Assembly (NCBI GenBank): GCA_964016885.1
Contig: OZ024741.1
Span: forward strand, 214,830,001-214,894,000
Direction of reading: 5' to 3'
Length of the DNA: 64,000 nucleotides
From: Eledone cirrhosa
Taxonomy: Eukaryota
Shown piece after piece: positions 3,141-59,552 of the stretch. The first letter of the stretch is position 1. Each line of letters starts with the position of its first letter. The notes beneath the pieces are model-generated. The model was not told the origin of the DNA, did not search any database, and saw only the letters and a list, made by a program, of their open reading frames with translations. Made by a program: the position numbers and the translations under genes.

Positions 3141-3172
3141 TATATATATATACATATATAGGAGAAAGTATG

Positions 3173-3272
3173 ACCCCGACGGCAGAGCTCAAGCCGTTTC
3201 GACGGCTATTTCTGGACTAAAGTAAGAGTTTTTTTTAGTCTGGTAAAAAAATAGCCGAACATATCAAGGGGT
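3173..3272 (-). ncRNA. Type I hammerhead-like motif (family Y, inverted pLTR copy)
   Basis: Near-exact reverse complement of 5332-5431; stem II CGGCTATTT/AAATAGCCG is intact. Confidence 0.6.
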
Positions 3273-3615
3273 ACTTCCTTATATGGGAAGATTGTAGTTG
3301 TCAAGAGGATTGGTCAAAATTTGTAGCAGACACAGAAAAGTCTATCATGGCAGTGGGTGCGGGCTGGGGTTGGCTGAACTTGCCTGTAGAACGATAGGGG
3401 AGTGGGTAGAGCCGGTCAAGCGTAGAAGGTGAAATCTACCCGGCAAATTCTAAGGAATGTGTATGAAATTAGGCCAGAGGAGGTTGGAGAAAAAAGGGGT
3501 TCAGTGCGGTCTGCCCGAGTCTAGAAGTAATTTGTTGACCCTCTAGATTTATGTCCTCGATAATTGAATGGTTAGCCTTTTTATAGGTGGAGTTTAGGCT
3601 GCTCCTGATCAGTGT

Positions 3616-4540
3616 GTGGTATCTGTTCGGGTTGACAACCTCCAAAATGACCTGTGCTACCCATACAGGAAACCAAACGACAACCTGCATTACATCCACC
3701 GCCGCTCTAACCATCCTAGAAACATCACCAATAATCTGGTTAAAAACAACTCCCTCCTCATATCTCGTTTGTCCGCTAATGAGCAGATATTCGAGGAAGA
3801 TGCGCCCCATTACAACCTGACCCTCAAGCGGAGTGGCTTCCGGGAGGAAATATCCTTTAATCCAGCTTCCCTTAGCGGAACCAGCAGGCGACGCCGCCGC
3901 TCACGCCACGTAACGTGGTTCAATCCTCCTCACAATGCCGAGGTGGCAACACCTATCGGGAAAATCCTCTTTAGGCTCCCCAAAAAAACACTTTCCACCA
4001 CAACACCGCTACCACGACATAATCAACAAAAACACTATCAAGCTATCCTACAGCACCAGACCTAAATTCGCACAAAACATCGTCTCCTCAAACAAACTAG
4101 AAACAATCTAGAAATTAGTGGAGAGCTGACCAGGAGGTGTAACTGCCCTGATAGATCTACGTGCCCCCTCAACAACAGATGCCGAGAACGTAACATGATC
4201 TACCAGTGCAATGTGATGACGGACACCTCCAACAAAGCTTATATAGGATTAACCGCTTGTGACTTTAAGACGCGGCTCTACCAACACCGACATACGTTCC
4301 AAAACCCGGTCCATATCTGGGACCTCCAAGATAATAATTAAAACTACCATCTTACTTGGAGCTTACTGTCCAGAGCTAACTCTTACATGGGAGGACGCCG
4401 TCCGAGTAACTTATGCTCAGAGGAAACAGTACAAATGCTGTTTACGAAGGATCAACTCCTAAACAAAAAAGACGAACTGGTAACTGCATGCAAACACAGA
4501 TTGCGGAAGACTTACCTCGCCCTCAAACAGCCTAACGATG
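3616..4540 (+). pseudogene. PLE (Naiad-type) RT C-terminus and GIY-YIG endonuclease, frameshifted
   Basis: Motifs across frames: YRKPNDNLHYIHRRSNHP, TWFNPPH, INKNTIKLSYST, CNCPDRSTCPLNNRC, MIYQC..AYIGLTACDFKTRLYQH, ELVTACKHR. Confidence 0.85.
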
Positions 4541-5331
4541 CGGGTGGGTAGACTAGGGCAGAAACACCTCCACTTGCCGAATAAGATAGGGAAAATCCCT
4601 ACTTATAAAGGTAGATGTACCTCTTTTCTCTTCCTCTATGTTTTCTTCTTCCCTTTGTCTCCCCCTATCACTTCTTTTCATCACCGAACTCCTTCCTCGT
4701 TCGTTTCACTGTTTTTTTTCCTTTTTCGCCTACCTAGGGGCAGCCCATCGGTCCTCTTTAGCCTCAGTACACCCACCCTAGTAACTTACAGATAGCATTC
4801 GCCGATTACGCTATACTAACTATTCATAGCAGCTGTGTTAGACCCCAGAGATGTGGTATTAATTTTTAATTCTAAATTTTCAATAATTCTCATCCAGCAA
4901 CTCATTATATAGCTTTGGCCGATATAGCAGCACCAACTAAATATAGCAGCTGTGTTAGACTCCTTAGTTTTATTTCACTTCTCACCTTCCAATCTTACAT
5001 TCTGATACATTTTTATTATATTCTTTTTTATTATATGTTTTCTTTGTCCCCTAATCGATTTTGTTTTACTATTTCTATAACGTCCCTCTTCCACTTTCTA
5101 AAGTAACCTTCTTTCGCCAACCTCCTCTGGCCTAATTTCATACACATTCCTTAGAATTTACCGTGTAGATTTCACCTTCTACGCTTGACCGGCTCTACCC
5201 ACTCCCCTATCGTTCTACAGGCAAGTTCAGCCATCCCCACCCCGCACCCACTGCCATGATAGACCTTTCTGTGTCTGCTACAAATTTTGACCAATCCTTT
5301 TGACAACTACAATCTTCCCATATAAGGAAGT

Positions 5332-5431
5332 ACCCCTTGATATGTTCGGCTATTTATTTACCAGATTAAAAAAAACTCTTACTTTAGTCCAGAAATAGAC
5401 GTCGAAACGGCTTGAGCTCTGCCGTCGGGGT
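5332..5431 (+). ncRNA. Type I hammerhead-like motif (family Y; variant core UUGAUAU, long stem II)
   Basis: ACCCC-TTGATAT-[long stem II]-GAA-ACGGC(TTGAGCTCT)GCCGT-C^GGGGT. Stem I is ACCCC/GGGGT with a GUC cleavage triplet. Confidence 0.6.
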
Positions 5432-5524
5432 CATACTTTCTCCTAATACCCAAGTATTGAGTACTCTGGTGCGTTATGGTGCATCTGGTTCCTTACCACA
5501 ACTCCTTCGTTATATACATATATA

Positions 5525-5755
5525 TTTTAAAATAACAGATTTAAGTTTAAGCAAAGAATCGCTGCTTTCAGCCTTAACGGGATCTTCTCATTCTCTTCAG
5601 AAGATCCTGTTAAGGGTGAAAGCAGCGATTCTTTGCTTAAACTTTAATCTGTTATTTTAATAAATATTTGCTCTACGGTTTTTTTTATATATACATTAAT
5701 TATCCTTGTCGAGCCCTCCTCGGATTTTAGTCTTCACATTGATTATTATTACTGT
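5525..5755. repeat. Family Z foldback element (arms ~5525-5588 and ~5599-5662) with a degenerate HHR-like motif
   Basis: AATAACAGAT..AAGCAAAGAATCGCTGCTTTCA..CTTAACGGGATCTTCT is followed by its reverse complement. Same family at 11452-11620 and 55903-56232. Confidence 0.75.
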
Positions 5756-5915: not shown

Positions 5916-5918
<3 letters not shown>

Positions 5919-6118
5919 CGAAGGAAGTGTGGTAAGGAACCAGATGGACCATAACGCATCAGAGTACTCAATACTTAGGGTAGTAGAGTGGATAATAAGA
6001 AAATGTCCAAGACTCCGACGGCAGAGCTCAAGCCGTTTCGGCGGCTATTTTTGGACTGTGTCCAGAAATAGCCGCCGAAACGGCTTGAGCTCTGCCGTCA
6101 GGGTCTTGAACATTTCCC
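5916..6118. repeat. Family Y 3'-end foldback centred at ~6058
   Basis: GACGGCAGAGCTCAAGCCGTTTCGGCGGCTATTT.TGGAC-tgt-GTCCA.AAATAGCCGCCGAAACGGCTTGAGCTCTGCCGTC, flanked by (TA)n. Confidence 0.8.
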
Positions 6119-7210
6119 TATATATATAATATATATAGGCTTAGCAGCTTGTTGATACGGATGTGCTTTCCCAACCGTCGAGATTTGAAATTTTAAATCG
6201 ACAGAAATCGGAGTTATGTATTGTTGTAATTTTTCAGAAAATGAGAAAAACCTATGAAAGAGATAAGTATCTGTACTTTGACGCGATTATTTTACGTATG
6301 TTAGCGTTTTAAATGGGTTTATTTTCACTGTGTGATATTCTCCTAAAAACAACACACAAACACGTGCTGTCTTTGTCTAACATACAGGATATAGAAAGCT
6401 AGTCAATTAACGTAATTTAATATAATTTAATTTAATTTTGTTTTATTTTGAGTAACATAATTTAATATAATTTTATTTTTATTTTTGACTCGGTAAGCAT
6501 GTATGTTTTTTTTTATTTTATATATATTGATATTACAATAACTACGGTTCACTATATACGGTTCCCCTTATTTATATTGGTAAACAAACCGATACCTACA
6601 TTTAAAATCAACTCATATAAATCTTCGTGATTCTATAGCTTTAACTTATTTCGGTTTCATTCATTTAATTTATTTTAAATTTATCTTATTTTATTTTATT
6701 TTAATTTATTCTGTCTCCTTTTATATTTCATGTTGATATCATTTGTTTTTTCACTTTGTTTTGGAGTTTTAATCGCGAAATATTCTTTGAATGATATTAA
6801 TTATTAATATTTATAGTTGTCTTTGGCCGCTCCACGTTGCTACTTTTCCTCTCTCTCTTTCTCTCTCCCTGCATTGCTATTTTTCATGCTGCCTCTGTCT
6901 CTCTCCTTCTTTCTTCCTCTCTCTCTATCTCTCTCTCTAGATCACACGAGCTCTCTCTCTCTATATATATATTGCACCTTGAATTTCTCACCGAACTTAT
7001 CTATCTCCCTCTATCTCTCTCGATCCTCTCTTCTGTCTCTCTCCCCTTTTTTTTTCTTTTTTCTTTTTCTCTCTCTCTAGATCGCACAAGCTCTCTCCTC
7101 TTCCCTCTAAATCGCTCCTTAAATTTCTCACTGGGCTTATATCTCTCTCTGTACCTCTCTAACCTCTCCCCTACCTTTCCCGCTATTTCTCTTTCTCCCC
7201 TCCACAGCGA

Positions 7211-10200: not shown

Positions 10201-10250
10201 ACAAATGGGCGGAAGAAAACAACATGCAGTTTAATGCTGGCAAATTCCAA
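7211..10250 (+). mobile_element. Decayed CR1/L2-group LINE (ORF1 relic, APE endonuclease, RT); 3' end interrupted
   Basis: APE motifs LLNVRGL, ALTETHL, HGGVALYI, YRP, PTRGENVLD, SHHNLV. RT motifs NYRPISLTS, QHGFRPGRS, LDFAKAFDKVDH, GVPQGTVMGPLLF, YADDTK, WAEENNMQFN. Multiple stops and frameshifts; Cys/His-rich ORF1 remnant near 7670-7850. Confidence 0.9.
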
Positions 10251-10275
10251 GCGGATCCTCAGCTCGTAAATTTAT

Positions 10276-10311
10276 GAGCTGAGGATCCGCTAAGGTGAAA
10301 CAATTGTTCTC
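10276..10311 (+). ncRNA. Minimal type I hammerhead motif
   Basis: GAG-CTGAGGA-T CC(GCTAA)GG T-GAA-ACAATTGT-T^CTC with palindromic stem III. It overlaps the hairpin at 10251-10290. Confidence 0.65.
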
Positions 10312-10534
10312 GGTATGGTGAACTAACTGTTGTGTAACCTCTTCTATATCCGCTCTCTTGCTCTGGAACCCTGACTCCAGCCTGACTAGGAGTAGGAAGC
10401 TGTCATTCCCTGACGTTATCTCTAGAGATACGGGAATCAGCAGACAGGACCTGGGGGCAGCGATGGGGGACAGGGGATTCTGGGGCATGAGAGTGAGATC
10501 CATCATCTCGACAGTAGTCGACGAGTGATGATGA

Positions 10535-10578
<44 letters not shown>

Positions 10579-10610
10579 AGATCAAAAGATGGTTAAAGGA
10601 GTTCAATATA

Positions 10611-10677
10611 TTTTATTATGCGCATTTCAAAAACAAACATCATCAAACAATAATATTTGTGTTTTCATCAGATAAAA
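10611..10677 (-). ncRNA. Type I hammerhead ribozyme motif (family X)
   Basis: Mirror of 11236-11302. Confidence 0.75.
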
Positions 10678-11235
10678 CAGGAGAACATGATATGAAGGCT
10701 AAAAAAACACTTGTTGATAGTGCAGTTTTAAATCAACATATGAAAAGTGGTTTTAGATTGATGTGTGATATTGGGAAAAATATTTTATTTAGAGAGGGGG
10801 GGAGAGAAAAGGATGAAAAGGGAAGGAGATGAGAGGGAGAGATGGGTGATAGAGAGAAAGAGATAGTTTTTATAACAGAGAGGAGATATATTTTATATAG
10901 AGGGGTTGAAAACCGTTGGAAGATACTGTATAAATTAAAAATTTTGAAAATTAACGAAGGAATTTTCAAAATTTTTAATTTATACAGTATCTTCCAACGG
11001 TTTTCAACCCCTCTATATAAAATATATCTCCTCTCTGTTATAAAAACTATCTCTTTCTCTCTATCACCCATCTCTCCCTCTCATCTCCTTCCCTTTTCAT
11101 CCTTTTCTCTCCCCCCCTCTCTAAATAAAATATTTTTCCCAATATCACACATCAATCTAAAACCACTTTTCATATGTTGATTTAAAACTGCACTATCAAC
11201 AAGTGTTTTTTTAGCCTTCATATCATGTTCTCCTG

Positions 11236-11302
11236 TTTTATCTGATGAAAACACAAATATTATTGTTTGATGATGTTTGTTTTTGAAATGCGCATAATAA
11301 AA
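11236..11302 (+). ncRNA. Type I hammerhead ribozyme motif (family X)
   Basis: TTTTAT-CTGATGA-[..CAAATATTATT(GTTT)GATGATGTTTG..]-GAA-ATGCGCAT-A^ATAAAA with palindromic stem III. Confidence 0.75.
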
Positions 11303-11617
11303 TATATTGAACTCCTTTAACCATCTTTTGATCTTATATTATGCATACTCCAGTCCCACAAACTGTAGAGTGCTTCTTATCCGATATCTGCATTGCTTTA
11401 TTGTACTACAATAAAACTCACCTCCTACATATATATATATATATATATATATAGTAATAATAATAAATTAGAAGACTAAAATCCAAAGAGGGCTCGATAA
11501 GGATAAATATATATCAAATATATAAGAACCGTAGAGCAAATATTTATTAAGAACAGATGAAAGATCCCGTTAAGGGTGAAAGCAGCGATTCTTTGCTTAA
11601 ACTTTAATCTGTTTTTA

Positions 11618-11659
<42 letters not shown>

Positions 11660-14345: not shown

Positions 14346-14523
14346 TATTACTCTAAGGACCTACCCTAATTAAGAGCTTTGCTAACTCATTCCTATTGTA
14401 GGTCGACTTTGCTTGGCCACAGACAAAGCTTCGATTTTACTATATATATACATACATACGTACACACACACACACACATATATATATATATGTGTGTATG
14501 TGTGTGTATGCATGTATATATAT

Positions 14524-14897
14524 CTAGGGCGGGTAAAATTCCCGAGATCCATGGACGAGTTCTCTCCAGCGGTCTCTGTCCCTCATCATCGCCGCCATGT
14601 CCTGCGTCTCCAAGAAACCAGTGTCTGTCCTTAGGGCATCAACATATGTCAACCTCGGTATCCCTCTTCTAGTGTGTCCATGCAGGGGCTCCCACAGAAT
14701 CATTGAGTGAAGTGTCAGCTCTGGATGTCGGTCAGCATGTCCAGCTAACCTCAGTTTCCTCTGAGCCACTCTCGAGCTGACTTTTGGGAGGCTCCCATAC
14801 AGCTCTGAGTTCTTCAGCCTCAGTGTATACTGATTAATGTTCAGAGCCATCCCCAGCATTCTCGTGTAGCACCCATCCACCATCTGAGTGAGTTTCT
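14524..14897 (-). mobile_element. 5'-truncated copy of the RTE LINE at 48996-52283
   Basis: [13 protein letters not shown]...[14 protein letters not shown] is nearly identical to the C-terminus of ORF 48996-50969; flanked by (TA)n. Confidence 0.9.
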
Positions 14898-15153
14898 TGT
14901 ATATATATGCATATTCATACATATATGTATATGTATGAATATGCATATGTAAGTCTATTTGTCTCACCATTTCTGCCAAATGCAGTCACCACCTCCCCCT
15001 CTCTCTCCCGTCATCTCTCCACTCTCTCCTTCTCTCACTGTGTCTCCCCCTCTTTCTCTACATTTCTAACACCACTCCCCCATATATAGAAACATAATAT
15101 ATCTCTATATATTTAATGTATGTACAATATATATATATTATATATATGTATAT

Positions 15154-15536: not shown

Positions 15537-15545
<9 letters not shown>

Positions 15546-15959
15546 GAGATCAAAAGATGGTTAAAAGAGTTCCATGTATTTTATTATGGGCATTTCAAAA
15601 ACAAATATCATCATGCAATAATATTTGTGTTTTCATCAGATAAAATAGGAAGACATGATATGAAGGTTAAAAAACTCTTGTGGATAGTGCAGTTTTAAAT
15701 CAACATATCTTGATTTAAAACTGCACTATCCACAAGTGTTTTTTAACCTTCATATCATGTCTTCCTATTTTATCTGATGAAAACACAAATATTATTGCAT
15801 GATGATATTTGTTTTTGAAATGCGCATAATAAAATACATGGAACTCTTTTAACCATCTTTTGATCTTATATATTATGTATACTCCAGTCCTAGAAACTGT
15901 AGAGTGCTTCTTATCCGATATCTGCATTGCTTTATTGTACTACAACAAAACTCACCTCC

Positions 15960-16040
<81 letters not shown>

Positions 16041-16172
16041 GTGTGTGTGTGTGAGAGGTGAGTTTTATTGTAGCACAATAAAGCAATGCAAATATCGGAT
16101 AAGTAGCACTCTACAGTTTGTAGGACTGGAGTATAAATAATATAAGATCAAAAGATGGTTAAAAGAGTTCCA
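15537..16172. mobile_element. Family X foldback (15537-15703 / 15710-15876) plus tail, then an inverted tail copy across a microsatellite (16035-16172)
   Basis: Imperfect palindrome with loop CATATC. HHR motifs at 15579-15645 (-, stem III mutated) and 15768-15834 (+, intact). Confidence 0.9.
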
Positions 16173-16235
16173 TCGCGGTCGAATTTATCGTGACGATGGA
16201 CTCTTTACTATCTTAAATTGCAACTTAGTTAACCT

Positions 16236-18236: not shown

Positions 18237-18298
18237 TTTTATTATATATATTTCGGAGGTACTGTGCTGTTTTTTCAGTACGTCCTCGTCAGATAAAA
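18237..18298 (-). ncRNA. Type I hammerhead ribozyme motif
   Basis: Minus strand: TTTTAT-CTGACGA-GGAC GTACTG(..)CAGTAC CTCC-GAA-ATATATAT-A^ATAAAA. All helices pair. Confidence 0.8.
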
Positions 18299-19297: not shown

Positions 19298-19365
<68 letters not shown>

Positions 19366-19367
<2 letters not shown>

Positions 19368-19556
19368 GGAGGTGAGTTTTATTGTAGCACAATAAAGCAA
19401 TGTTGATTTAAAAGTTCACTATTCACAGGTGTTTTTTAAGCTTCATATCATGTATCCATATTTAACTGATGAAAACGCAGATATCATCCCATGATGATAT
19501 TTGTTTTTGAAATTCGCATAATAAAATACTTGGTACTCTTTTAATCATCTTTTGAT

Positions 19557-19560
<4 letters not shown>
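19366..19560. repeat. Family X copy (inverted tail, then HHR-bearing segment; HHR ~19461-19526, +)
   Basis: GGAGGTGAGTTTTATTGTAG (- orientation) is joined to TTGATTTAAAA..CTGATGA..GAAATTCGCATAATAAAA (+). Confidence 0.8.
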
Positions 19561-19604
<44 letters not shown>

Positions 19605-20447: not shown

Positions 20448-21405
<958 letters not shown>

Positions 21406-22496
21406 CGTGTGTGAGTGTAAACACAAATATCAAAGCAAATGACACACCATAATGAAGAAATATATTAGTCTAACGTTGAAATAATTGGAAAGGTGTCTTA
21501 ACATTTCGACCATTAGTCCCGTATCAGGAGATAGAATGAGAAATAAAACATAAAATAGAAAGATAAAGTGCTAGAAGAGGTAGGGACAGAAAACAGTTGT
21601 GCGTTTTCTTCAACCATTTTCGATATTCCTGAGTAAGTCGTGTTTGAAAATACAAAATATATTTAAAGCAAGAATATTAATGGTTTTCCTATACATTTAA
21701 GATCGGAGAATAAGTTCCTGGAATCAACGCCACATATACCACCAATATATACAATTTCTGAAAGTTGTTTACTTAATAAAGTTAATTTATAATTAATTAT
21801 AATTTATAATTAATAGTTTCTGATTTTAGCACAAGGCCAACCATTTTTGGGGAGAGGAAAGTCGATTAAATCGATACCAGTACGTGACTGCTACTTTATT
21901 TTATCGACCCCGTAAGGATGAAAAGGAAAGCTAACCTCGGCAGGATTTAAACTCAGCCCATAAAAGGCAGGATTTAAACTCAGCCCATATGCTGCAAAGC
22001 AAGTTCTCCGATGCTCTACCGATGCTCTACCGATGCAGTCAACACGATAATTAATGAAATACAATGAAATTATATGTGAATATATTTAATTTAGATATTT
22101 ATAAATGAGCGAGACTCAGTCACCCGACCGAAAATCCCGACCAAGCCCATGCTAGCGTGGAAGATAGACGTTAATCGACAATGACGATGATGATGATCAT
22201 ATGTATACTTAGCATCTGAGGAAAATAGGATGTGTCTATATTTCTTTTGTCTGTCCATGTTACATGTACTCAGAATTTAATGAACACTGTATGACTGTCT
22301 ATGTGTGTAGGTGTGTGTGTGCGTGCGTGTGTGGGGGAGGGGGCGCACGCGTGTTTTTATGTGTATTCAGATCCAGACATGTAAATGAATACAAACGAAC
22401 ATACACACACACACACAGATACACAAACACAGATACACACACAGAGATACACACACACACATATATATATATGTATACATATATATATATATATAT

Positions 22497-22647
22497 GTAG
22501 GAGGTGAGTTTTATTGTAGTACAATAAAGCAATGCAGATATCGGATAAGAAGCACTCTACAGTTTGTAGGACTGGAGTATACATAATATATAAGATGAAA
22601 TGCGCATAATAAAATACATGGAACTCTTTTAACCATCTCTTGATCTG

Positions 22648-22655
<8 letters not shown>
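22497..22655. repeat. Family X short inverted-join copy
   Basis: Inverted tail followed by GAAATGCGCATAATAAAA..TTAACCATCTC in forward orientation. Confidence 0.8.
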
Positions 22656-22695
<40 letters not shown>

Positions 22696-23967: not shown

Positions 23968-24103
23968 ATATTTAATATAGAAATGGCTTCTACAGGACTA
24001 GAACTGTTTCATTCGGGAGAAACCATCAGAAACCCAGGCTTCCTGATGATTTCTCCCGAATGAAACAGTTCTACTCCTGTAGAAGCCATTTATATATTAA
24101 ATA
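23968..24103. repeat. Foldback made of two back-to-back hammerhead motifs
   Basis: AATGGCTTCTACAGGA.TAGAACTGTTTCATTCGGGAGAAA.CATCAG is followed by its reverse complement. Confidence 0.85.
24037..24087 (+). ncRNA. Type I hammerhead ribozyme motif
   Basis: GGCTTC-CTGATGA-T TTC(TCCC)GAA T-GAA-ACAG(TTCTACTC)CTGT-A^GAAGCC: 6-bp stem I and a non-palindromic stem III. Confidence 0.8.
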
Positions 24104-24217
24104 TTTATACTCTGCTATGTATTCTGTACCTTAGTTACTGCGGTTACGCCCGATTGAACCCGGGATAAACTTATGTATATATATATAAGCATACATACAT
24201 TCACACACACACACACA

Positions 24218-25405: not shown

Positions 25406-25740
25406 ATTGTATGTATGTGCGAACGCTTGCGAATAAACAGAACGATTCGTAGACGAAAAATGTAATCAATTCGTAAAATACTGTTAATATGATCAATCAA
25501 ACCAGTTATAAAGAACTAAAAAATATAAATCGAAAGAAGTGAAGCAACGATTTTGTGATATATAGGAATGTAAATATATTACCATATATGGTCATGAGCC
25601 TTGACGCGTAAAATGGTTGTTGAGAATAAAGGTCAGACTAAAATTAGGCAACAGGGAATATCATCATATATTGTTAAAGTGATTATTCACCATTGCCAGA
25701 TATTTCAGGAAATATTTCCCCTACTCTCTATCTATCTATC

Positions 25741-28700
25741 GGAAGTCAAGCGATTCGTTCGACGCACGAAGCTACAGCCACATTTTCATCAAACCCCACC
25801 GGCTCCGAACGCTCCAGACCCATTTCTCGCCCTGGGCCGACGACCATCGTCTTGGACGCCGGCACCAGGGCAATTTAGCACCCTGGACGCGTTCGTCGAC
25901 GCCTGCCGTAGCGCAGTAAATCGCTTCGACTTCTGCCACCGTTCCAAACGGCATAACATCTCACGGGGCGAACTCCTCGCTCTCCGCTCCTCCCTTACCC
26001 GAGATGACATCATCAACAAACCGGCGGACAAGGGAGGCGCCGTGGTGGTGTGGTGCGCTGACATCTACACGGCCGAGGCCCCTAGGCAGCTCCGTAACCC
26101 CCTATTCTACCGCCCTCTACCCTCCGACCCACACCAACAACAAGTTTCCTCCACCATCCAACACCTTGTCTCCTCCTCCCTCCTCTCTCCCACCGCTTCC
26201 CACTTCATCTTCCGCACACACCGCACCCCACTATCTACTTCCTCCCCATCTCCACAAACCCGACAACCCCGGCCACCCCATCGTCTCCGCTAGCAACTGC
26301 CCCAAGGAACTCATCTCCGCTTTTCTTGACTCCATCCTCGCCCCCTTGGCAGCACCCTCCATTCCCCCATCCCCTCCACCTCCACCCTCCTTCGCCGCAC
26401 CGAGCTGGTCCTCACCCTCAACTGCTTCTCCTTCTCGGGTGAGTTTTACCAACAGGTCATGGGGGTAGCACAAGAATGGGCCCAAACTATGCCAACCTTT
26501 TCGTTGGCCATGTTGAGGCCCAAATCTTTGCCCGGTATACCGGCCCCACGCCCGAACTGTACGGTCGTTACATCGACGACTGTATCGGATCCACGACCTT
26601 CACCCGAGAACAGCTCGACTCCTTTCTCTCCTTCTTCTGCTCCTTCCACCCCTCTCTCCACGTCACCACCTCTATCTCTACCACCCACGTCCACTTCTTA
26701 GACATCTCCGTCACCATCGACCCCTCCCGCCACTCCCTCGTCCCCTCCGCCTTCTTCAAACCCACTGACTCCCACTCCTACCTCGACTTCACCTCCCACC
26801 CTACTCCCAACTCCTCCGGATCCCCGCCTCTGCAGCGGAGATGCTGACTTTTGAGTGCCACGCCCTTTCACTAGTCAGCCATTTCATCCGGAGAGGTTTA
26901 ACCCCCCCCCTCGTTCACACCACCTTCACTCGCACCCGTGTTGTCCACCGTCCACCACCCTCACCCCACGCCACCGCACACCAACCCACCGTCTCGCCTT
27001 CCCCATCACCTACCACCCTCCACCCTTCCCCTCCACCGCACCATCCTCCAACACCAGTCCGACCCCTCCACCTCCCCCATATTCCTATCCACAGCCCTCC
27101 CCTCCTTCAAACGCACGCGCAATCTCCGCACCCTCCTCGTCTACAGCTCCCTACACGCCAACCCAAACATTTCTTCCTCCCCCCCCCGGTTCCCTTCCCT
27201 ATCCAGGCCTCGCTGCCACACCTGACCCCACATCACCAACACCACTACCTTCCAGGGTCCCAACGGCCACTCTCTCTCTGTCCGGCATGCCTTCCGCTGC
27301 ACCTCCTCCAACCTCGTCTATGGACTTCGCCGCACTCCGTGCACCGCAACCTACGTCGGACAGACTGGACGTCGCCCGGTGGACCGTTTCACTGAACACC
27401 TCCGCGATATTCGTCTCGGCGGGAGTTCCCCCATCGCCCGCCACTTTGCCCCCCCCCCCCCCACGGACATTCCGCCCACCACCTCACAGTTTGTGGCCTA
27501 CTCCAATGCTATGGAACACCCGCCACCCCCTCACAGTCGAAAAACACACTATCTTCACCCTACAGACCAACACACCCCCCGGCCTGAACTCCCCACTCCT
27601 ATTCCTTTAGCCTTCGACCGCCCAACTTTCCACCCCGCACATCACCCACATAACACCACTAACACACTCCTCCATTACACCGCTCCACCCCTTGGCCCAC
27701 CCCACAACTAATAATACTGACACTCATCCAAACACGCACACACACACACCAGTACACTACACTCCCTCCTTCGTCCCCAACACCTTTTCTCTCCCTCTCC
27801 CTCTCCCTCTCCCCACTCCACCTACACCCCTTCACACACACACATCCCACTAACACCTCTACTAATATACACCCCATCCCCCCACATCACCACCTTCCCC
27901 CTCCACCTTTCACACCTACCCATCCTCTCCCCTGTCCACCGCACCTCCGACACACAGACACACAGTCCTCACCACATACCGACCATTCCTCCACCTGTCA
28001 TCCCCCTCTACTGCTATCTCTTCACCCTGCCTTGACCCTCTGACCACTTCCCGTTGCGCGAGCACCCCACATCTTTCCACTTCCGACCACCACCACTAAT
28101 GGATTCCACACCACCGGTCATCGGTCCAGCTATCCACTCTATAACATGAGAAATATCCAACATCTTATCGCACACTCCCCGGAACTACCTTAGTGACTTA
28201 CCCACGAACAAACACTCACATTTGTTTTCGAACCACGCCACCTACATCCACACCACGTATAAACACAAACACACACGTGCGTAACCCCACATATACACAC
28301 TCAGCCTCCCTCCCCACCCTCTGACCCCTCTCTATCCATACGCACGCATTCACCGAATTACACGCCACCCCATGCACACACCTTTTCCTGAACATGGAAC
28401 CTCGTTCTTTCCCAACTCTCAGATTCACATACACACACACACACACACACACGTACACCTACACACATACACAAACACCACCTTCAGCCCTCCCTGCTCG
28501 GACCCCCCGCCTCCCTCTCCCAACTCTACCCACCACTTGTTTATTTTTATGTTTATTTTTATTTTTATTTGTACTTCTGCGATCGTTTTTCCTCCCTTTT
28601 CCCACCCCCCCTTTTTTCTAAATGTCTTTCCACCACTCCCCCACACACCCTCGGAACTATCTTCCTACCCACTTTTCTCCTGATGAAGGGCTTATGCCCG

Positions 28701-31304: not shown

Positions 31305-32235
31305 TTGGAGCTCTGAAATAGCAATATATATATGGATGTATATATAATGTATTTTGCAATAGACTTTATGCTTAATTAAAAGCATTTTGAAGACCGTAAG
31401 CTATTGTTTTAAAGTAGTGACAAATTCACTCACTTTGATCTCAGCAAACAGGGGAGATAAGCCGACAAGACTTGTTTCGCTTTGGTTAAAGCTTATCAAG
31501 GCCAACTACCCCACCTGTCTACTGAGATCATTGATGTTATATTCTTATAGAAATCTAGTAAATAATTAGGAGCTGATTATGCAGGCAGAAATTAAAAATT
31601 AGAATTGGAGCTCTGAAATAGCAATATATATATGGATGTATATATAATGTATTTTGCAATACACTTTATGCTTAATTAAAAGCATTTTGAAGACCGTAAG
31701 CTATTGTTTTAAAGTAGTGACAAATTCACTCACTTTGATCTCAGCAAACAGGGGAGATAAGCCGACAAGACTTGTTTCGCTTTGGTTGAAGCTTATCAAG
31801 GCCAACTACCCCCACCTGTCTACTACTTGTCACTACTTTAAAACAATAGCTTACGGTCTTCAAAATGCTTTTAATTAAGCTTAAAGTGTATTGCAAAATA
31901 CATTATATATACATCCATATATATATTGCTATTTCAGAGCTGCAATTCTAATTTTTAATTTCTGCCTGACCAACAACCGCTCTGCATAATCAGCTCCTGA
32001 TTATTTACTAGATTTCTATAAGAATATAACATCAATGATCTCAGTAGACAGGTGGGGTAGTTGGCCTTGATAAGCTTCAACCAAAGCGAAACAAGTCTTG
32101 TCGGCTTATCTCCCCTGTTTGCTGAGATCAAAGTGAGTGAATTTGTCACTACTTTAAAACAATAGCTTACGGTCTTCAAAATGCTTTTAATTAAGTATAA
32201 AGTCTATTGCAAAATACATTATATATACATCCATA
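31305..32235. mobile_element. Family V: tandem 300-bp HHR-bearing units followed by an inverted tandem block (retrozyme-like)
   Basis: 31305-31524 repeats at +300. From ~31827 the unit runs inverted with a period of ~315. HHRs at 31460-31503(-), 31760-31803(-) and 32063-32106(+). Confidence 0.9.
32063..32106 (+). ncRNA. Type I hammerhead motif with U3-A8 core (family V)
   Basis: GGCC-TTGATAA-GCTT(CAACCA)AAGC-GAA-ACAAG(T)CTTGT-C^GGCT. Long stem I extension GATCTCAGTAGACAGG / CCTGTTTGCTGAGATC. Confidence 0.75.
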
Positions 32236-32272
32236 TATATATACATATATGTATTTATGTATATACATACAC

Positions 32273-36723: not shown

Positions 36724-37206
36724 CGTTGCCCGGTATATATATATGTTGATTTAAAACTGCACTATCCACAAGTGTTTTTTAACCTTCATATCATGTCTTC
36801 CTATTTTATCTGATGAAAACACAAATGTTATTACATGATGATATTTGTTTTTGAAATGCGCATAATAAAATACATGGAACTCTTTTAACCATCTTTTGAT
36901 CTTATATATTATATATATATATAATGTAGAAGGTGAGTAATATTGTAGAACAATAAAACTATGCATATATCAGATAAGTAGCACTCAACAGTTGGTAGAA
37001 CTGGAGTTTATATAATAAAGAAGAAATCAAAAGATGGTTAAAAGAGTTCCATATATTTTATTATGCGCATTTCGAAAACAAAATCATCCTGGGACAAAAA
37101 CTGTGTATCTGATGAGACAACAATTTTTGTCCCAGGATGATTTTGTATTCGAAATGCCCATCATAAAATATATCGAACTCTTTTAACCATCTTTTAATTT
37201 CTTCTT

Positions 37207-37210
<4 letters not shown>
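36724..37210. repeat. Two family X copies: forward copy with an intact HHR (36804-36870) and a diverged foldback centred at ~37110
   Basis: Direct similarity to 15710-15876. AAAATCATCCTGGGACAAAAA pairs with TTTTTGTCCCAGGATGATTTT. Confidence 0.85.
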
Positions 37211-37246
<36 letters not shown>

Positions 37247-43621: not shown

Positions 43622-45380
43622 AATTCAAGAAAGAAGATTGACATGGTTCGCTATACAATAAGTGCTTTATTCACATTGCTGACAATTGTTTCTTTGATCT
43701 GGCAGATCTAGAGTTCGCTATACGCCTGATTATGCGCCAATCGATCTCCAATACTTTGTTTATAACCAGTCGGTTTCATCAGAGCGGGTGAAATGAAGAA
43801 AATACATAAGACATGGTTTTTATATAAGTGTGGTATTAAACCAGAACAATAATATCAATGAGAAAATAAAATAACTAGATAGCAGACAATTAAAATAATG
43901 ATTTCTTTATTTCTTTATTTCTTTCTTTCTTTCTTTTTTTTTTTTTCGTTTTATTAGACAATTAAAATAATAACATCAATATAAGTAAGATATAATGAAG
44001 AATCTAGCATGTTAAACAGACTGATATGATACAGATGTATGGAATTGACGTGTGAAAACTGCTATAGGGTACATTAGATATAGTGATGGGGTAGCGACTA
44101 GATAACAGTAACCACTAAGATGTACTTGGAGACAGAATTTATGAGGTATCCACTGTGCTGTAGGTATTCTAGCAATAAACCGGAGATTTACTTTTTATTT
44201 TTTTATTATTTGACAGATAAACATTTTCGTTTGATTAATTTAGTAGTGATGATAGTTTTTATGTGGTGTTAAATAGAGTTGTAGATTCGTTATTTAAGTG
44301 GCCTATACTAAACGTAAGGATTGTTAGTTCGACTCGTGGGGTTTAGTTTTCACAGCATCAATAACAAATCGTGTATAAATAAGATAGTGATAACAACAAT
44401 AATTGTTTCTACTTTAGGCACAAGGCCAGCAATTACCCAGTGCATTACTGGTACTTTATTTTATCGACCCCGTAAGGATGAAAGGCAAAGTCAACCTCGG
44501 CGGGATTTGAACTCAGATCGTAAAGGGACGTAACTATGCTGGAAAGCATGGCGTCCGACCCTCTACCGATACTGCCAATCCACCGCCCTATAACAACAAT
44601 AATGGAAGGTAGTAAAGTAGTAAAATGTGAATGGTAGATATATAGGACATGATGAATAATATTAGGGCTATATTGAGATGTTCATAATAATAATAAGAAT
44701 AATAAGAATAATAAGAATAATAAGAATAATAAGAGGAAAGTGAGATTTCAAGGGGTGTAGAAGTACTAAGATAAAATACTTAGAATTAGGTTCATCTGTT
44801 AGAGATCGTGAGTGCTAATGAGAGATATAAATCCTTGGTCCGATGTAGTGTGTAACAGTGAAGGTAGGATTGATTTATGGCTGATAAGAGAGTTGTAGAC
44901 ATATTCCAGTGGAATAGAATTAGGGGGCTATAAGGTATTTCTAGAAAATTATAGTTCCGTATTGGGCTGTGTGAGAAGGCGGATTTCATATGTTAGAAGC
45001 TAAGTGGTATTGGTTCGAATCACGGTGGTTTAAATCTCGCCAATTTTGTAGCAATCCTATGTCTGCAGAAAATTGAGCTTTCTATTTTCCTTAAGATATG
45101 CAGCAATTGAAGGTTGCAGGGCCCGCAGTAGCACATACCGCTGCTATATGTCTTTGCGGTCGCCAATTTCGACCAGCTAATATTATAATCAAAGTGTTTG
45201 TCCTTAAGTTGCCAGATTTTATTGGCGAGGCTTGTAGAATTTATCAGTGCACGGATCGATTCGCGCATAATCAGGCGTATAGCGAACTCTAGACCTTCCA
45301 GATCAAAGAAACAATTGTTAGCAATGTGAATAAAGCCCTTATTGTATAGAGAACCATGTCAATCTTCTTTCTTGAATTAT
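43622..45380 (-). mobile_element. 5'-truncated Naiad-type PLE (GIY-YIG C-terminus at 45020-45250) with an inverted pLTR fragment; SINE inserted at 44400-44590
   Basis: SLANKIWQLKDKHFDYNISW..CGPCN..IFCRHR. 43622-43745 is the reverse complement of 45255-45378. Confidence 0.8.
43678..43785 (-). ncRNA. Type I hammerhead motif with very long stem II
   Basis: Minus strand: GCT-CTGATGA-[~80 nt, CTGG..CCAG]-GAA-ACAATTGT-C^AGC. Confidence 0.6.
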
Positions 45381-45708: not shown

Positions 45709-45982
45709 GAAAAACGTAAAATAAGAAAATTATAAAAATTAACTTACTTACTAAAATTTCACTCCAACTAATTAGTTTCTGAAAGGGAATAAACATGGTT
45801 TCCAAATGGGAAGCACGGAGAAGCCGTTTCGTCATCAGAAAGTCTGTTCTCAGCTAAGATACCTGGCGATGCGTGGAAACAAGGAACTTATACAAAAATA
45901 ATTCAGTGGATGGAAAAAAGCAAGCGTGGACTAAATTCCAAGACATTGAAAAAATCGGTGCCTATATATATATATATATATA

Positions 45983-47230
45983 ATATAAGATAAAAGGATG
46001 GTTAAAAGTGTTCCATGTATTTTATTATGCGCATTTCAAAAACAAATATCATCATGAGATGACATTTGCGTTTTCGTCAGATAAAATAGGGAGACATGAT
46101 ATGAAGGTTAAAAAACACTTGTGAATAGTGCAGTTTTTAATCAACATATGAAAAGTAATTTAAGATTGATGTGTAATATTGGGACAAAAATGATGGGGGG
46201 GGGGGGGATGAAAAAGAGGAGGAGATGAGAGTAGAAAATTGTGAGGGAGGAGTATAATAAGAAAGGATGAGATAGGAGGAGAAATGGGTGATAGAAAGAG
46301 AGAGATAGCCTTTATAACTGAGAAAAATATTGTTTCACAGAGAGAGGTTAAAAAGCCGTGGGAAGATAATATATAATTTAAAAGAATTTGAAAATTGATG
46401 AAGAGAAAAATTAATGAAGAGAAAAAAATTAAGAATAATGTTGAATTAAGGTTTGTATATTGAAGGGTTTAATAATATGTGCGATGAAAAGAAATTGTTA
46501 ATATGTATCATTAAAAAAAATATATTAATGTTATTAAGGATATAATGTGAAAAGAAGTAGAAGAGTGGATGAATTATGAATTTAAAGGAATTAGTTAGTG
46601 TTTAAGTTTGTTTTTATGTAATGTAATATGTATGCGTAATATATGTAAATAGTATGTTTACAAATGAGCGCAGAAAGCAAAGAAGAAAATAGTGTTTAAG
46701 GAAGAGAAGACTCTAACAACAAAGTATATATGTTTATGAAGTATTTCCTAATGGTAATAATATAATATAATGTAATAAAGGAGATTAGTTAGGGTTTAAG
46801 TTTGTTTTTATGTATTGTGATATGTAATATGTAAAAGTTAGACGAGCATGAAAGGGAGAAAAATATATAATGAATTGCGGAGGAATAATCTAACGTCAAA
46901 AAATGTTTATGTTTACGAAGGATTTTTAAAGGTTATACTATAAAATATTTAAAAGGTAATAATAAGTTTTATGGCCAATGATATGAAGGAAGAAGGAAGA
47001 GTGGTTATATTGTGGTGAGTAATAATAAGAATTGAGAAGTATATAGGAAGAAAAAGTACAGATTAGAGGTTAGAAATTAAAAGAAAAGAGGAAGAAAGGG
47101 AATTGATAAATAGGAATGATATAGAATTTCGTTAGGTCGAGGGGCCAGTATGTTCAACCTGTTATGGTGCCGTTTTAGTAACTGACATTAATAATTATGT
47201 TAATATTTGTTCTATAGATTTGAGTTGTTC
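45983..47230 (-). mobile_element. Longest family X copy (HHR at 46020-46086 plus ~1.1 kb upstream)
   Basis: 45983-46400 aligns with 10572-10960; HHR core is CTGACGA. The sequence continues as a strand-biased, UTR-like tract. Confidence 0.75.
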
Positions 47231-48995: not shown

Positions 48996-50969
48996 CTAAG
49001 GCGGGTAAAATTCCCGAGATCCATGGACGAGTTCTCTCCAGCGGTCTCTGTCCCTCATTATCGCTGCCATATCCTGCATCTCCAACAGACCAGTGTCTGT
49101 CCTTAGGGCATCAACATATGTTAACCTTGGTCTTCCTCTTCTAGTGTGTCCATGTAGGGGCTCCCAAAGGAGCACTGAGTGCAATGTCAACTCTGGATGT
49201 CGGTGAGCATGTCCAGCCAACCTCAGTCTCCTCTGTGTCACATTTGAGCTGACTTTTGGGATGCTCCCATACAGCTCTGAGTTTTTCATCCTCAGTGTAT
49301 ACTGATTAATGTTCAGAGCCATCCTCAGCATTCTCGTGTAGCACCCATCCACCATCTGAGTGAGTCTCTTGGTCAGTGTCCAAGTCTCAGACCCATACAG
49401 CAGCACAGACTCCACTACAGCAATGAAGAGGCGGATTTTCAGGTCTCTACGAAGGTCCGACTTCCACACCGATCTCAAGCTGTGACACGCCGCCCAGGCC
49501 TTGCTCTTCCTCTCAACCACATCATCCTCCGTATTCCCAATCTTTGCTCCCAAATACAGGAAGTCCTCAACCAATTCCAGCGGCTTCCCGCCTACATTAG
49601 TGATCCCCTCTGGCTTCTCAACATTCTCTACCAGATATTTTGTTTTAGTCTCATTCATTCTCAGCCCCACACTCATCGACACAGTCTCAACCTCCCGCAT
49701 CAAATCCTCTGCCTCCTTCACTGTATTTGTCACCAAAACTATGTCGTCGGCAAATTCAGCATCCGATACCTTTTTCGCCCCAACTCTCCTGCTCTGAGCC
49801 GGTGCTACAGTAAAGCCAGTGTCCTGGTGTTTCTCCAGTGCAAGGCGCATACAATAGTCCACTACGATGATAAAAAGGTAGGGAGCCAATGTATCTCCCT
49901 GGAGCACTCCAGCCAGTATCTCAAAGAACTCTGTCATCCCATCAGGTGTAATGACTTGGGCTTTGGTGTTGGTGTAGAGCAGTGATATCAGGTCCACTAT
50001 CCTCTTGGGGATTCCATAAGCCTGTAAGATCTTCATCAGGCAGTAACGGTCCACAGAATCAAAGGCCTTCCTAAAGTCAATGAAAACCATGACCGCAGGA
50101 AGGCACTTTGCTCTAGCTCCCTCTAATATCCTCCTCAGCATCAGGATGTGACTGGTGGTTGATCTACCCTCTCTGAAGCCGTTCTGGTTGTCCCTGAGCT
50201 TCTTCTCCATCTCAGGCTGGATCCTGTTAAGAATCATCCTGTTGAGGGTCTTTGCCACAAGTGATGTCAGTGAGATCCCCCGGTAGTTATTGGTGTTAGA
50301 GAGATCTCCCTTCTTTGGCACTGGGACGATGTTACTGATCCTCCACTGATTCGGGGCAACTCCTTTCTCCAGTGCCCCGTTACAGAACCCCAAGATGATA
50401 TCATCAAAATCACACCTCCTCATCACCTCTGATGCCACTCCATCTTCTCCATGAGCCTTGCCCTCCTTGATCTTCTTCTTGGCTCTCTGAAGCTCCTCTC
50501 TGGTGAAGGGCTCTGTCTCAACATCCAGTTCCTCAAACAGCCGCCTGATCTCCCCAGTGCTCTGGGCTGTGGAGGGTGGCTCTCCTAGTAGGGTCCTAAA
50601 ATAGTCTAGCCATTTCTTCTTCCTATCCTCGGGCCCCGTTCCCTGGATCTGACTCGAACACCTTTTCTTCCTCCCTGTGATCTCGTTGATGATCATCCAG
50701 CTCTCCTTACATCCAGATCTGTCAACCGCTCTCTCCACACTTCTGATCTTCTCTATCAGTGCCTCCTCTCTGACCTCAGTGTAAGCGGTACAGAGCTCTT
50801 CCCTCATCACCTCCACAGTCTCCATCCTCTCCTCCGTAGGATCAGCATAGAATTGGTCCCTGGCAGCTTTCAGGTGTTCTCTAGCTGCACACACTTTTGG
50901 GTTTGCAAAGCTGACGTGCTTCCCTTTGTTCTTTTTCCTCGGCACCAGGGTTTCACTTGCTTTCGCCAC
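48996..50969 (-). CDS. RTE LINE reverse transcriptase (657 aa open frame)
   Basis: [69 protein letters not shown]. Confidence 0.93.
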
Positions 50970-51915
50970 TCCTCGTCACACTCTCCTCAGTCCATCCAAT
51001 ATCTCTCTCCTCTGACTCTCCACACAGAGCACTAAACCTGCTTCTCACTTCCACTGTGAACCTCTCCTGTAGCTTATCATCTTCCTTGAAAGCTCCCCAG
51101 TCATAGATTGTTCTCCGGGGCTGAGCCTTGCTCTTTCTTAAGCTCACGCGGACCTCACTCATAACAAGCCGGTGGTCACTACCCAGTGTACTGAAATAGC
51201 TGTATGGTTCCGTGTTCAGAACACTATTCCGCCACTTTTTCCTCACCAGAATGAAATCAATCTGGGACTTGGACAGGTGCATATCTGAGATGTAGGTCCA
51301 CATCTTCCCCAGATTCTTCCTAAACCTTAGGTTGGTCGCCATCAAGTTCGCCTCCAGGAGGGTGTCTCTCAGTAGTCTTCCATTTCGGTTGGTGTTGTTA
51401 TGGAAGTACCAGCAAGGATCTTCACTGCCCTCCTTACTCAGATGTGCATTGAAGTCCCCCAAAACAAGCAGGATATTGTGTTCCTGAGTGGTGTTGACAG
51501 CTCTACACACCTCCTTATGGAACTCCTCGGCATTCACATCACTGTCCCCCTCGGTTGGACTATAGGCTGAGATGACTGTCAGTCTTGGGTTTCCATTGAA
51601 GGTCACCCTCAACACTCGCGGGGAGATAGGCATTATTTCCCTCACCAACAGATTGGTTTTTGCACTGAACACAAAACCCACTCCTCCTACTGCAGCATTT
51701 GTTGTGTTCTTCACTGCCGATGTAGTGATGAGCTGGCTCTTCCTCCCGATCATCACACTCCTCACGGGCTCATCGTGTAGAATCCTGTGTTCTTGGATCG
51801 CAAGTATCTGTATACCACTCTCCTCGAACAGATGTCCCAACTCCTCTCTCTTCTCCAGCGTTCGAATAGTCCTCACATTCAAAGTGCCCATTTTAATGGC
51901 TCTTCTGCAGGACAA
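50953..51915 (-). CDS. RTE LINE apurinic-like endonuclease domain (5' half of a frameshifted ORF)
   Basis: GTLNVRT, LAIQEHR, GGVGF, ISAYSPT, LGDFNAH, NRNG, SQIDFILV, GSDHRLV. Confidence 0.9.
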   Translation of the reverse strand: MSCRRAIKMGTLNVRTIRTLEKREELGHLFEESGIQILAIQEHRILHDEPVRSVMIGRKSQLITTSAVKNTTNAAVGGVGFVFSAKTNLLVREIMPISPRVLRVTFNGNPRLTVISAYSPTEGDSDVNAEEFHKEVCRAVNTTQEHNILLVLGDFNAHLSKEGSEDPCWYFHNNTNRNGRLLRDTLLEANLMATNLRFRKNLGKMWTYISDMHLSKSQIDFILVRKKWRNSVLNTEPYSYFSTLGSDHRLVMSEVRVSLRKSKAQPRRTIYDWGAFKEDDKLQERFTVEVRSRFSALCGESEERDIGWTEESVTRSGESK

Positions 51916-52552
51916 AACTGCATTCTTTATATTTGTCCTGGGTATGACATTAAACTACATCCAGTGGCAAGGCTCCAGTTCGGGAGTTCAGGAGATGTGG
52001 GGAATGTGGAGTTACCCCTTAGTTGTCATGACTCCCAGGTCTGCCCTGGCCCGGGGTGGTAGTACCTGTTAGGGCTCCATTTATGGGTTAAATAACTACC
52101 TTATTCGAGTGGCGCCGGTAAGGTATTGTCAGCCATTGAAAAGAAATATGGAGAGTCGATCTAACAGCACTAGGGTTAGAGCCCCTAATTACACTGTCAA
52201 GGAGCAGCCTGGTCGTTATGACTCTGCTGGCTTAGAGCCACAGAGAGGGCCAGTGGATGATGGATCAGCTGTCTCTGAGACAAATATGTATATATATATA
52301 CATATATATATGTATATATATATATACACACACATATATATGTATATATATATGTATATATATACATGTACATATATATATATATATACATATATATATC
52401 AATTAGAAAAAGTGTGCATCAAATTACGCCGAGGCCGAGATTATGTGATACAAGATTACATACATTCTTTTCTGAAGAAAGTAATTGTATATGTATGTTT
52501 CTATATATCTATATATATCTATCTATCTCTCTCTCTATATATATATACACAT

Positions 52553-57436: not shown

Positions 57437-58262
57437 TTAACCATATAGCTTGAGGAAAGTTCCCGTCCTTAGGTGTCTGCAGGCACCGAATAAGTCGGTC
57501 CTTCTGTTTAATAGCTTGGTTCCGCCATGAAGTATCTCGAGTGTCTCACTAAGAAAGAGATTGCGAATACCAGACCCGCCTCTGTCTGGGGGAACCTTTC
57601 TAACCACGGACCAGACCAGAGAGTGCGGGGTCTTTTCAAGTTTGAGCTTCCAGATCAATTCAAAAAGGGCCGTATATTCCTCTTATCTATTCTGTTAAAG
57701 GAATTGCGATTGTTATACCACCGAGCTTTGAAGCTCGTCTCTGTGGTTCCAATGTAGTAGTTTGCTCCGAGTTAGGGGTTGTGACCTTGCACCTGTAGAC
57801 TACGTTTTTCGTCATGCATTCATTACTAAGGGGGCATAATGATGGGGCTCTGCAATTACATGACTTCTTAAGCCCCACCACATGTACCGCGTGGTTACCA
57901 TCACTCGGGGTTGGCTGGGTAGCCTCCGCAATCAGCACAGGATCGTTGGGTTCCGGTGTGCTAGTTGGGCCTGTCCGGGTTCCGGTGCGTCCCGCGTGCT
58001 GGTTCTGTTGGGTGACTCCTGGGTTTACGGTGGTATTAGAGGCAGTGAGCCTATTCCTATTTATGTCCACTATGTGCTTGGCTACGGAGCGTGTGGTTGA
58101 GTAGGAAAGTTTCACCGTGTGCCTGTTGAATATTTTATGGTACTTGTGGGCCCTAAGGAAAAATGTATCCAGTACGCTAAAGAATGTTCTAGCCAGGCTG
58201 GTACGTAGACCCACCGAGTACGGAGGGTTATACTATGTGACCCTCCTGGTCCTATTCTTGCG
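57437..58262 (-). pseudogene. Naiad-type PLE linker and GIY-YIG endonuclease, frameshifted
   Basis: YNPPYS, HKIFNRHTVKLSYST, CNCRAPSLCPLSNECMTKNVVYRCKV, IGTTETSFKARW, IWKLK, LLNRRTDLFGACRH. Confidence 0.88.
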
Positions 58263-58633
58263 GGGTTGTTAGCTTCAAAAAACATCTTCCTCTCTTGTCT
58301 TGCGATTGGCTGTTGTTTTTATACGTCATCATAAATTCTGGTCAATATTTGCTCCCATACTGGCCATCAGCTACTCTCCGTCCGACACAATTCAATGGAC
58401 TCATGCTGGGTTTGGTATTTCACAAGTCCGCTCACGCACACATATATACACACACATACACACACATATACACATACACATACACACATACGCGCACACA
58501 TACATATATACGCATCCACATATGTACACACCCATATACATATACACACACACGCACATACATACGCCTGTTCTTATAGAGGGGCACAAAGACAGACACG
58601 CTCCCAAACACACACACACACATACACACATAT

Positions 58634-58714
<81 letters not shown>

Positions 58715-59204: not shown

Positions 59205-59237
<33 letters not shown>

Positions 59238-59429: not shown

Positions 59430-59490
<61 letters not shown>

Positions 59491-59511
59491 TATACACACA
59501 CACACACACAC

Positions 59512-59544
<33 letters not shown>

Positions 59545-59552
59545 CACGCACG

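Follow-up and report, generated by a model that had tools for sequence, protein, structure and literature searches.

The window, meaning the whole 64-kb stretch that was analysed, is repeat-rich animal DNA with remnants of LINE RT. Its longest inverted repeat is a palindrome of two 382-bp arms separated by an 8-nt loop, AACGAAGG (Table 1). The arms, which looked identical by eye in the first-pass annotation, are exact reverse complements in the assembly at 382 of 382 bases, and the first mismatch between them is found at 10570/11343. The next-best perfect arm in the same window with a spacer of 30 nt or less is only 34 bp long, which excludes chance as the origin of the palindrome.

That annotation missed an 86-nt tail carried by the right arm only, as well as the (TA)n runs on either side. 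The left arm passes straight into (TA)n and the right arm runs on through the tail before (TA)n is reached. The order of the insertion is (TA)n, an inverted tailless copy, the loop, a direct copy, the tail and again (TA)n. The inversion ends exactly at the recurrent tailless end of the family, a 3' end that the left arm shares with six other copies in the window. The flanks are not mirrored, and the two flanks of the palindrome are different elements. A target-site duplication is unreadable in the left (TA)n run.

Table 1. Features of the palindromic insertion and of its relatives in the window (positions are those of the window; a dot marks features given no strand)
Feature	Position	Strand	Remark
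(TA)n run, left end of the insertion, likely target	10537..10570	.	run 10537-10573 overlaps the first arm bases
Inverted, 5'-truncated, tailless copy of the element 3' end (3' UTR and pseudo-LTR)	10571..10952	-	
Type I hammerhead motif, inverted arm	10609..10679	-	predicted cut after 10617, minus strand
Loop, element sequence extending the tailless arm past the fold	10953..10960	-	8 nt
Direct copy, identical to the inverted arm	10961..11342	+	
CATATG (self-complementary), recurring 5' limit and fold site in the family	11171..11176	+	
Type I hammerhead motif, direct arm	11234..11304	+	predicted cut after 11296
86-nt one-sided tail, AC-rich 3' stretch after a small hairpin	11343..11428	+	
(TA)n run, right end of the insertion	11429..11453	.	
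Sister insertion, inverted tailless and direct tailed arm	15537..15964	.	fold at CATATG (one base changed); 3/166 arm differences
Sister fragment, tail and about 35 nt, no clear partner arm	16026..16173	-	
Sister insertion, last ~63 nt of tail inverted, ATG joint to tailless body	19340..19563	.	two arms, no palindrome
Sister insertion, inverted tail and ~15 nt joined to 55-60-nt tailless body	22474..22656	.	
Sister fragment, tailless body from the CATATG site, no partner arm seen	36741..36907	+	
Sister insertion, diverged subfamily, inverted tailed and direct tailless arm	36924..37215	.	6/96 arm differences
Longest sibling, tailless, ~1.1 kb AT-rich non-coding, no ORF	45980..47130	-	5' limit uncertain

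Eight insertions of this family were found in the window, five of them two-armed (10.6, 15.5, 19.3, 22.5 and 37.0 kb) and three one-armed (16.1, 36.7 and 46 kb). All five two-armed insertions are arranged head-to-head, with one tailless and one tailed arm and a different junction in each. Three of the five are palindromic; the 19.3- and 22.5-kb insertions form no palindrome. The imperfect sister palindromes described earlier at 15.5 and 37 kb are indeed present in the assembly, and the 23-nt loop of the latter contains the sense hammerhead core of its tailless arm. The 3' ends of all aligned copies carry (TA)n, except for one tail followed by (CA)n and then (TA)n, and the 5' ends vary. The CATATG sequence in the direct arm is the probable start of a pseudo-LTR of about 170 bp, and four arms from three other insertions start at 11171-11174. 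Since the fold of the palindrome lies about 210 nt upstream of this probable start, its arms also contain 3' UTR.

No full-length copy of the family is present in the window, the longest being about 1.1 kb and non-coding. This copy had been regarded as the un-inverted parent of the palindrome. At 45983-46400 it does extend beyond the fold point (GAAAATTGATGAAG versus GAAAATTAACGAAG), but it is a diverged sibling and not the parent, since its identity is 66% in the 5' part (82% without gaps) and 82% in the last 172 columns. The loop of the palindrome matches this sibling at 5 of 7 bases. The far end of the 46-kb copy was also considered as an inverted tail and rejected, as its score is not above that of shuffled sequences (49 of 300 reach it).

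The hammerhead motifs were located by a core-and-stem scan of the window, which was positive in both arms of the palindrome and in four sibling arms. The same motif had been reported on both strands, and this is correct, but each motif is 2 nt wider on each side than was first given. The cores, one on each strand, are separated by about 570 bp. Each consists of a helix I of 8 bp, a CUGAUGA/GAAA core, a long helix II and a 2-bp helix III with palindromic UGCGCA, and AUA is found at the predicted cut. The conserved core C3-U4-G5-A6-N7-G8-A9, G12-A13-A14-A15.1 and U16.1-H17 is present in full, as are helices I and II. The G10.1-C11.1 pair closing helix II is absent; A..U is found there, and the inner end of helix II is weak. 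Two sense copies are predicted to cofold through the UGCGCA region of the short palindromic helix III, with an energy of -34.9 kcal/mol. The search of Rfam at gathering thresholds gave no match over the 64 kb, and with E up to 10 the section 10400-11600 gave 32 matches, all sub-threshold and none of them to a hammerhead. The miRNA matches were rejected as sub-threshold and as reflecting the hairpin alone. The hammerhead is present twice because it sits within the duplicated end piece of the element, and it appears to have no special role in the palindrome. Hammerhead-like motifs unrelated to the family were seen in a relaxed scan at 18237-18298(-), 30963(+), 34135(+) and 18957(-).

The RT/endonuclease gene of this family is not found as an ORF within the 64-kb window. 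Frames of 115 codons across the palindrome have no Pfam match and were taken as chance. In the tail, one frame is open in all five full tails. Ten of the 20 distinct changes in the tail are synonymous in this frame, compared with 23% expected; the p value of 0.007 for this frame becomes about 0.04 when six frames are allowed for. One antisense frame has p=0.022, probably as the mirror of the sense frame, and one diverged copy of the tail is without the ATG. This substitution pattern suggests that the tail probably contains the start of the ORF of the element. A profile of the tail peptide gave two matches only among 1.84 billion representatives, neither of them meaningful, and both were rejected as unrelated repetitive proteins. 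Comparison of a 44-aa version with longer proteins gave no candidate, a result of little weight, and the exact 29-nt family motif had no match in the metagenome contigs. On the opposite strand, the ends of the tails (11413-11421 and others) read AG followed by GTGAGT, which is kept in six of six copies including the diverged one. We take this to resemble a consensus splice donor; it may merely mirror conserved codons.

Sequencing runs with a word share of at least 0.2 were aligned to the section 10895-11600 at 88% likeness, and four of the 24 runs were aligned in this way. One of them (X6) is from another sample of the same organism and another (X4) is from another organism. The RAD-seq run X22 has about one read over the left-arm part, which is too little for a judgement. 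Among the matches listed for the four runs, where the three best-matching runs consist of short contigs only and the raw-read run is of reduced representation, no read or contig bridges the fold. One contig from X6 and one from X4 match the left arm and the entire loop to position 10960 and then continue un-inverted. The loop is therefore the tailless arm's own continuation, which agrees with the earlier proposal that the fold arose within the element. From X4 there is also a contig that forms a perfect palindrome centred on CATATG at 11171, that is, the fold of the 15.7-kb sister, and a contig in which (AT)n follows directly on 11342, which corresponds to the tailless end. In X1, X6 and X4 the depth of coverage increases near 11170, consistent with the pseudo-LTR of about 170 bp, although depth is not equal to copy number.

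The age of the insertion can be considered from the identity of its arms. The insertion had been called young, and this is plausible: no difference was found in 382 positions, while five other inverted pairs in the window differ by 1.1-6.4%. At the lowest of these rates, zero differences in 382 would have a probability of 0.012. However, the instability of palindromes, which was the argument originally given, provides no date, because five older inverted pairs persist in the window. Long perfect arms can also be rendered identical by gene conversion or by polishing of an assembly. In 166 columns compared, the two arms have 12 bases in common that are unlike those in all four siblings, and several of these are minority alleles in the aligned runs but do not seem confined to this locus. 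The palindrome copy is 8-9% diverged from its nearest siblings in the window. A recent insertion from a minor subfamily fits these observations best.

The features of the locus allow us to propose that the palindrome is a 5'-truncated insertion of an endonuclease-type Penelope-like element (PLE) or of a non-autonomous derivative, probably recent, in (TA)n. We give this reading a probability of roughly 0.86. The PLE traits present are the head-to-head inverted 5'-truncated copy, the one-sided tail, the type I hammerhead, the AT-rich or microsatellite target, the variable 5' truncation and the lack of poly(A). The locus is PLE-like in every feature that can be tested, and it falls short of membership only by the ORF. 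In favor of this assignment are the five of five two-armed insertions with a tailless and a tailed arm and scattered junctions, and the coding-type pattern in the tail. Against it stand the RT/GIY-YIG ORF, which was not found in the window, the 86-nt tail, which is longer than the published 30-40, and the absent G10.1-C11.1 pair.

The layout of the insertion is a pattern already published for PLEs. According to Craig et al. 2021 (PMC8557442), an inverted 5'-truncated copy lies adjacent to the 5' end of the PLE, a tail of 30-40 bp is often found on one side only, there is a bias for (TA)n, and such structures cause trouble in assembly. Arkhipova et al. 2013 (PMC3846280) found the inverted junctions to be rich in palindromes, which they attribute to self-priming on an antisense template. 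The features shared with the insertions in these two accounts are the head-to-head inverted 5'-truncated copy next to the direct copy, the palindrome both at the junction and at the pseudo-LTR 5' end, the one-sided tail and the AT-rich or (TA)n target. The main differences from them are that the tail here has 86 nt instead of the 30-40 of PMC8557442, that some 210 nt separate the fold from the probable start of the pseudo-LTR downstream of it, and that no ORF is linked. In Pen2a_Av (PMC3846280) the tail continues the start of the ORF, and the tail frame found here fits this. Inverted terminal repeats of variable size are given as the commonest Penelope structure in D. virilis by Schostak et al. 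2008 (PMC2377424).

The hammerheads can be compared in the same way. Cervera and De la Pena 2014 (PMC4209133) describe pairs of hammerheads located on opposite strands at distances of about 100-700 bp, as well as PLE hammerheads of shrimp, fly and rotifer with a small palindromic helix III. The motif found here shares with these metazoan examples the type I topology, the CUGAUGA/GAAA/UH core, the long helix II and the 2-bp palindromic helix III, and differs from them in the missing G10.1-C11.1 pair, the helix I of 8 bp and the 12-bp core of helix II. Purified PLE protein has been studied by Frangieh et al. 2024 (PMC11167929); it cleaves AT-rich DNA and extends both of its strands, with two start sites that flank the tail, and the hammerhead is dispensable for insertion in vitro. 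The Poseidon PLE of Anolis carolinensis, PAc, used in that work has in common with the present family the AT-rich target, the two 3' ends bracketing the tail, the AC-rich stretch with a small hairpin at the end of the tail and the hammerhead just upstream. In PAc, however, the ORF starts at stem II of the hammerhead; here that ATG is followed by a stop after 13 codons and the conserved frame is that of the tail. PAc has been characterized biochemically, while the present locus is known from its sequence. The non-LTR retrozymes (Li et al. 2026, bioRxiv 10.64898/2026.07.22.740005) are also short and non-coding, with a type I hammerhead and a relation to the PLE pseudo-LTR, but they are by definition head-to-tail tandem units, and none of the eight family insertions in the window is a direct head-to-tail tandem.

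The most serious alternative is a fold-back artefact, in which library preparation or assembly would have turned a copy with one arm into its mirrored form; we consider this improbable. The arms are 100% identical and share the 12 bases that differ from four of four siblings compared, no fold-bridging piece occurs among the matches listed for the four runs, and foldback reads are documented in long-read data (PMC12870357). However, a mirrored read should also mirror its flank. Here the mirror stops at a biological end, the tailless one, and the flanks are different elements, which makes such a read unlikely. The sister palindromes differ between their arms (3/166 and 6/96), and the fold of the 15.7-kb sister occurs in a contig from another organism. 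In addition, the summed depth without an alternative base at 11036, 11266 and 11308 in run X1 (about 2,200, 31,000 and 97,000) is far above the 7-45 of single long contigs. This depth, which is not a measure of copy number, hints at a minor subfamily.

It is less likely still that what moves is the palindrome as a whole, as a MITE-like or fold-back element that has long TIRs and carries the hammerheads by chance. The long inverted arms, and the CATATG-centred fold repeated in the 15.7-kb sister and the X4 contig, would be expected of such a unit. A MITE or fold-back DNA transposon has a fixed palindromic unit with symmetric termini and a target-site duplication, and here the ends are asymmetric and the junctions vary across the five two-armed insertions, two of which are not palindromic. 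One arm is always tailed, single-armed copies occur, and no second copy of the 382-bp fold is present in the window or among the matches listed. An older single insertion made palindromic by chromosomal break repair with fold-back synthesis, unrelated to retrotransposition, is similarly remote. It would explain why a copy 8-9% diverged from its siblings has identical arms, but repair has no reason to halt at the tail boundary, and the tailless and tailed pattern is found in all five two-armed insertions. The least probable explanation is that the locus is a functional hairpin-RNA gene (a precursor of siRNA or a substrate of ADAR) or a selected two-strand ribozyme switch. A read-through transcript is predicted to fold into one long hairpin of about -664 kcal/mol. 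The RNA runs contain at most 0.05 of the locus words, below the share used for alignment, and yield no evidence of expression. Against such a role, the locus lies among repeat remnants, the sub-threshold Rfam miRNA matches mentioned above give it no support, and the catalytic core is predicted to be paired in the hairpin, with a mean probability of being unpaired of 0.0004. Each strand has only one sense hammerhead, and a hammerhead of this type needs two sense copies according to PMC4209133. The fold predictions thus indicate that read-through RNA from either strand would bury the ribozyme, and no function is supported.

Under the preferred reading, an insertion of a PLE, the origin of the palindrome can be discussed further. 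Snap-back self-priming of cDNA had been suggested, and it is a reasonable mechanism already proposed for PLE palindromes in PMC3846280, but it does not suffice alone. As the loop is part of the tailless arm, copying this arm by fold-back could not yield the 86-nt tail of the other arm, and either a further priming event or some resolution step must be added. In the simplest complete account, the enzyme of the element would nick both strands of the TA run, and reverse transcription would start twice, at the internal (tailless) site and at the end of the tail. The internally started cDNA would halt about 390 nt in and fold back, or meet its twin at the same point. The folded cDNA could then be copied back to the tail boundary and joined to the short tail cDNA from the other nick. 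Without the fold-back, the products would be of the 19.3-kb and 22.5-kb type.

Given a PLE insertion, snap-back of the cDNA has about an even chance of being the step that made the fold. Annealing of two cDNAs that end at the same RNA 5' end is possible but clearly less favored, and self-priming on antisense RNA is rather unlikely. The primer for a snap-back is weak, as the 4-bp AATT stem is not a favored DNA fold and the X6 and X4 contigs have the second AATT 2 nt too far out for the junction. Fold prediction gave no strong pre-formed hairpin at the fold. A 4-bp snap-back would be available to 25 of the 360 possible cDNA ends in the arm.

The family insertions might even record the order of PLE integration, with two primers, one internal and one at the tail end, of which the internal cDNA reaches furthest and snaps back. 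We put this forward only tentatively. In all five two-armed insertions of the window the 5' reach of the tailless arm equals (one case) or exceeds that of the tailed arm, and the two palindromes whose loop can be assigned both have it in the tailless arm. If the internal cDNA runs furthest and snaps back, the loop would always lie in the tailless arm and no antisense RNA template would be needed. This asymmetry is not general, since a neighboring family (3159-5525) has a tailed arm that exceeds the tailless one in length.

A similar arrangement is known from LINE-1, in which twin priming, with two primers at two target nicks, leads to a 5' inversion with a joint of short microhomology. In L1 inversions the pieces derive from one RNA and mostly do not overlap. 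The sisters at 19.3 and 22.5 kb resemble such products; the palindrome, unlike LINE-1 insertions, contains its 382 bases in two copies and lacks poly(A). In a literature search that covered few subscription papers, the term twin priming was absent from the five PLE-focused papers listed.

As a single locus the palindrome matters little, being one clean example of PLE inverted copies. It adds a data point to the question of how PLEs make tandem or inverted structures with a one-sided tail, which is listed as unresolved in PMC8557442. If the loop were found in the tailless arm over many copies, the older idea of self-priming would be united with the two start sites measured in vitro. A very abundant family with the 86-nt tail would permit a test of the proposed order of integration from one genome. 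Insertions of the PLE type also continually supply these genomes with long perfect hairpins.

The palindrome sits in a nest of PLE-like remnants. On the left, 10250-10536 is an independent element that likewise has a hammerhead motif (core 10279, +) and whose 5' end is formed by a 16-bp fold-back (10250-10291). It begins where a LINE RT frame breaks off, and no other copy is found in the window. On the right, 11453-11620 belongs to another family, in which a short body is joined to an inverted piece and the hammerhead-like core is degenerate. In this family, position 11550 joins the opposite strand in 870 raw reads with 80 start points, which also counts in favor of the PLE assignment. A pyrimidine tract with CAG at its end usually precedes 11561 in the aligned runs and resembles a splice acceptor.

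The family at 3159-5525 consists of an inverted tailless arm of 339 bp, an ORF remnant (3598-4338), a direct arm and a tail of about 80 nt. The nearest Atlas clusters of the remnant include a GIY-YIG one (18% of members). This family has the layout of the palindrome family around an ORF remnant, which counts in favor of the PLE assignment. A small fold-back of the same family is located at 5918-6119, with a tailed inverted arm, a 34-bp perfect core, a tailless direct arm and (TA)n. A third fold-back family is found at 23979-24170; its perfect core measures 24 bp, its right arm begins with a hammerhead-like core, and a one-sided extension of about 70 nt precedes (TA)n.

Pfam gave no PLE domain, only one sub-threshold DUF match, for seven candidate PLE ORF remnants elsewhere in the window, so that the labels of PLE remnants rest on known motifs and one Atlas lead. 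The broken frames 25598-27708(+), 57690-58232(-) and 45023-45358(-) are presumably remnants of PLE RT or endonuclease by such motifs, and 20517-21464(-) we take, on the same basis, to be a remnant of a mariner-type transposase; Pfam named none of these four. Two further long inverted pairs are located at 31324-32242 (3/261 differences), with an additional partial copy between the arms, and at 58255-60536 (20/313). A nearly intact LINE is present at 48999-51954(-), with an endonuclease frame of 333 aa and an RT frame of 659 aa, and a 3' fragment of the same LINE family lies at 14443-14899.
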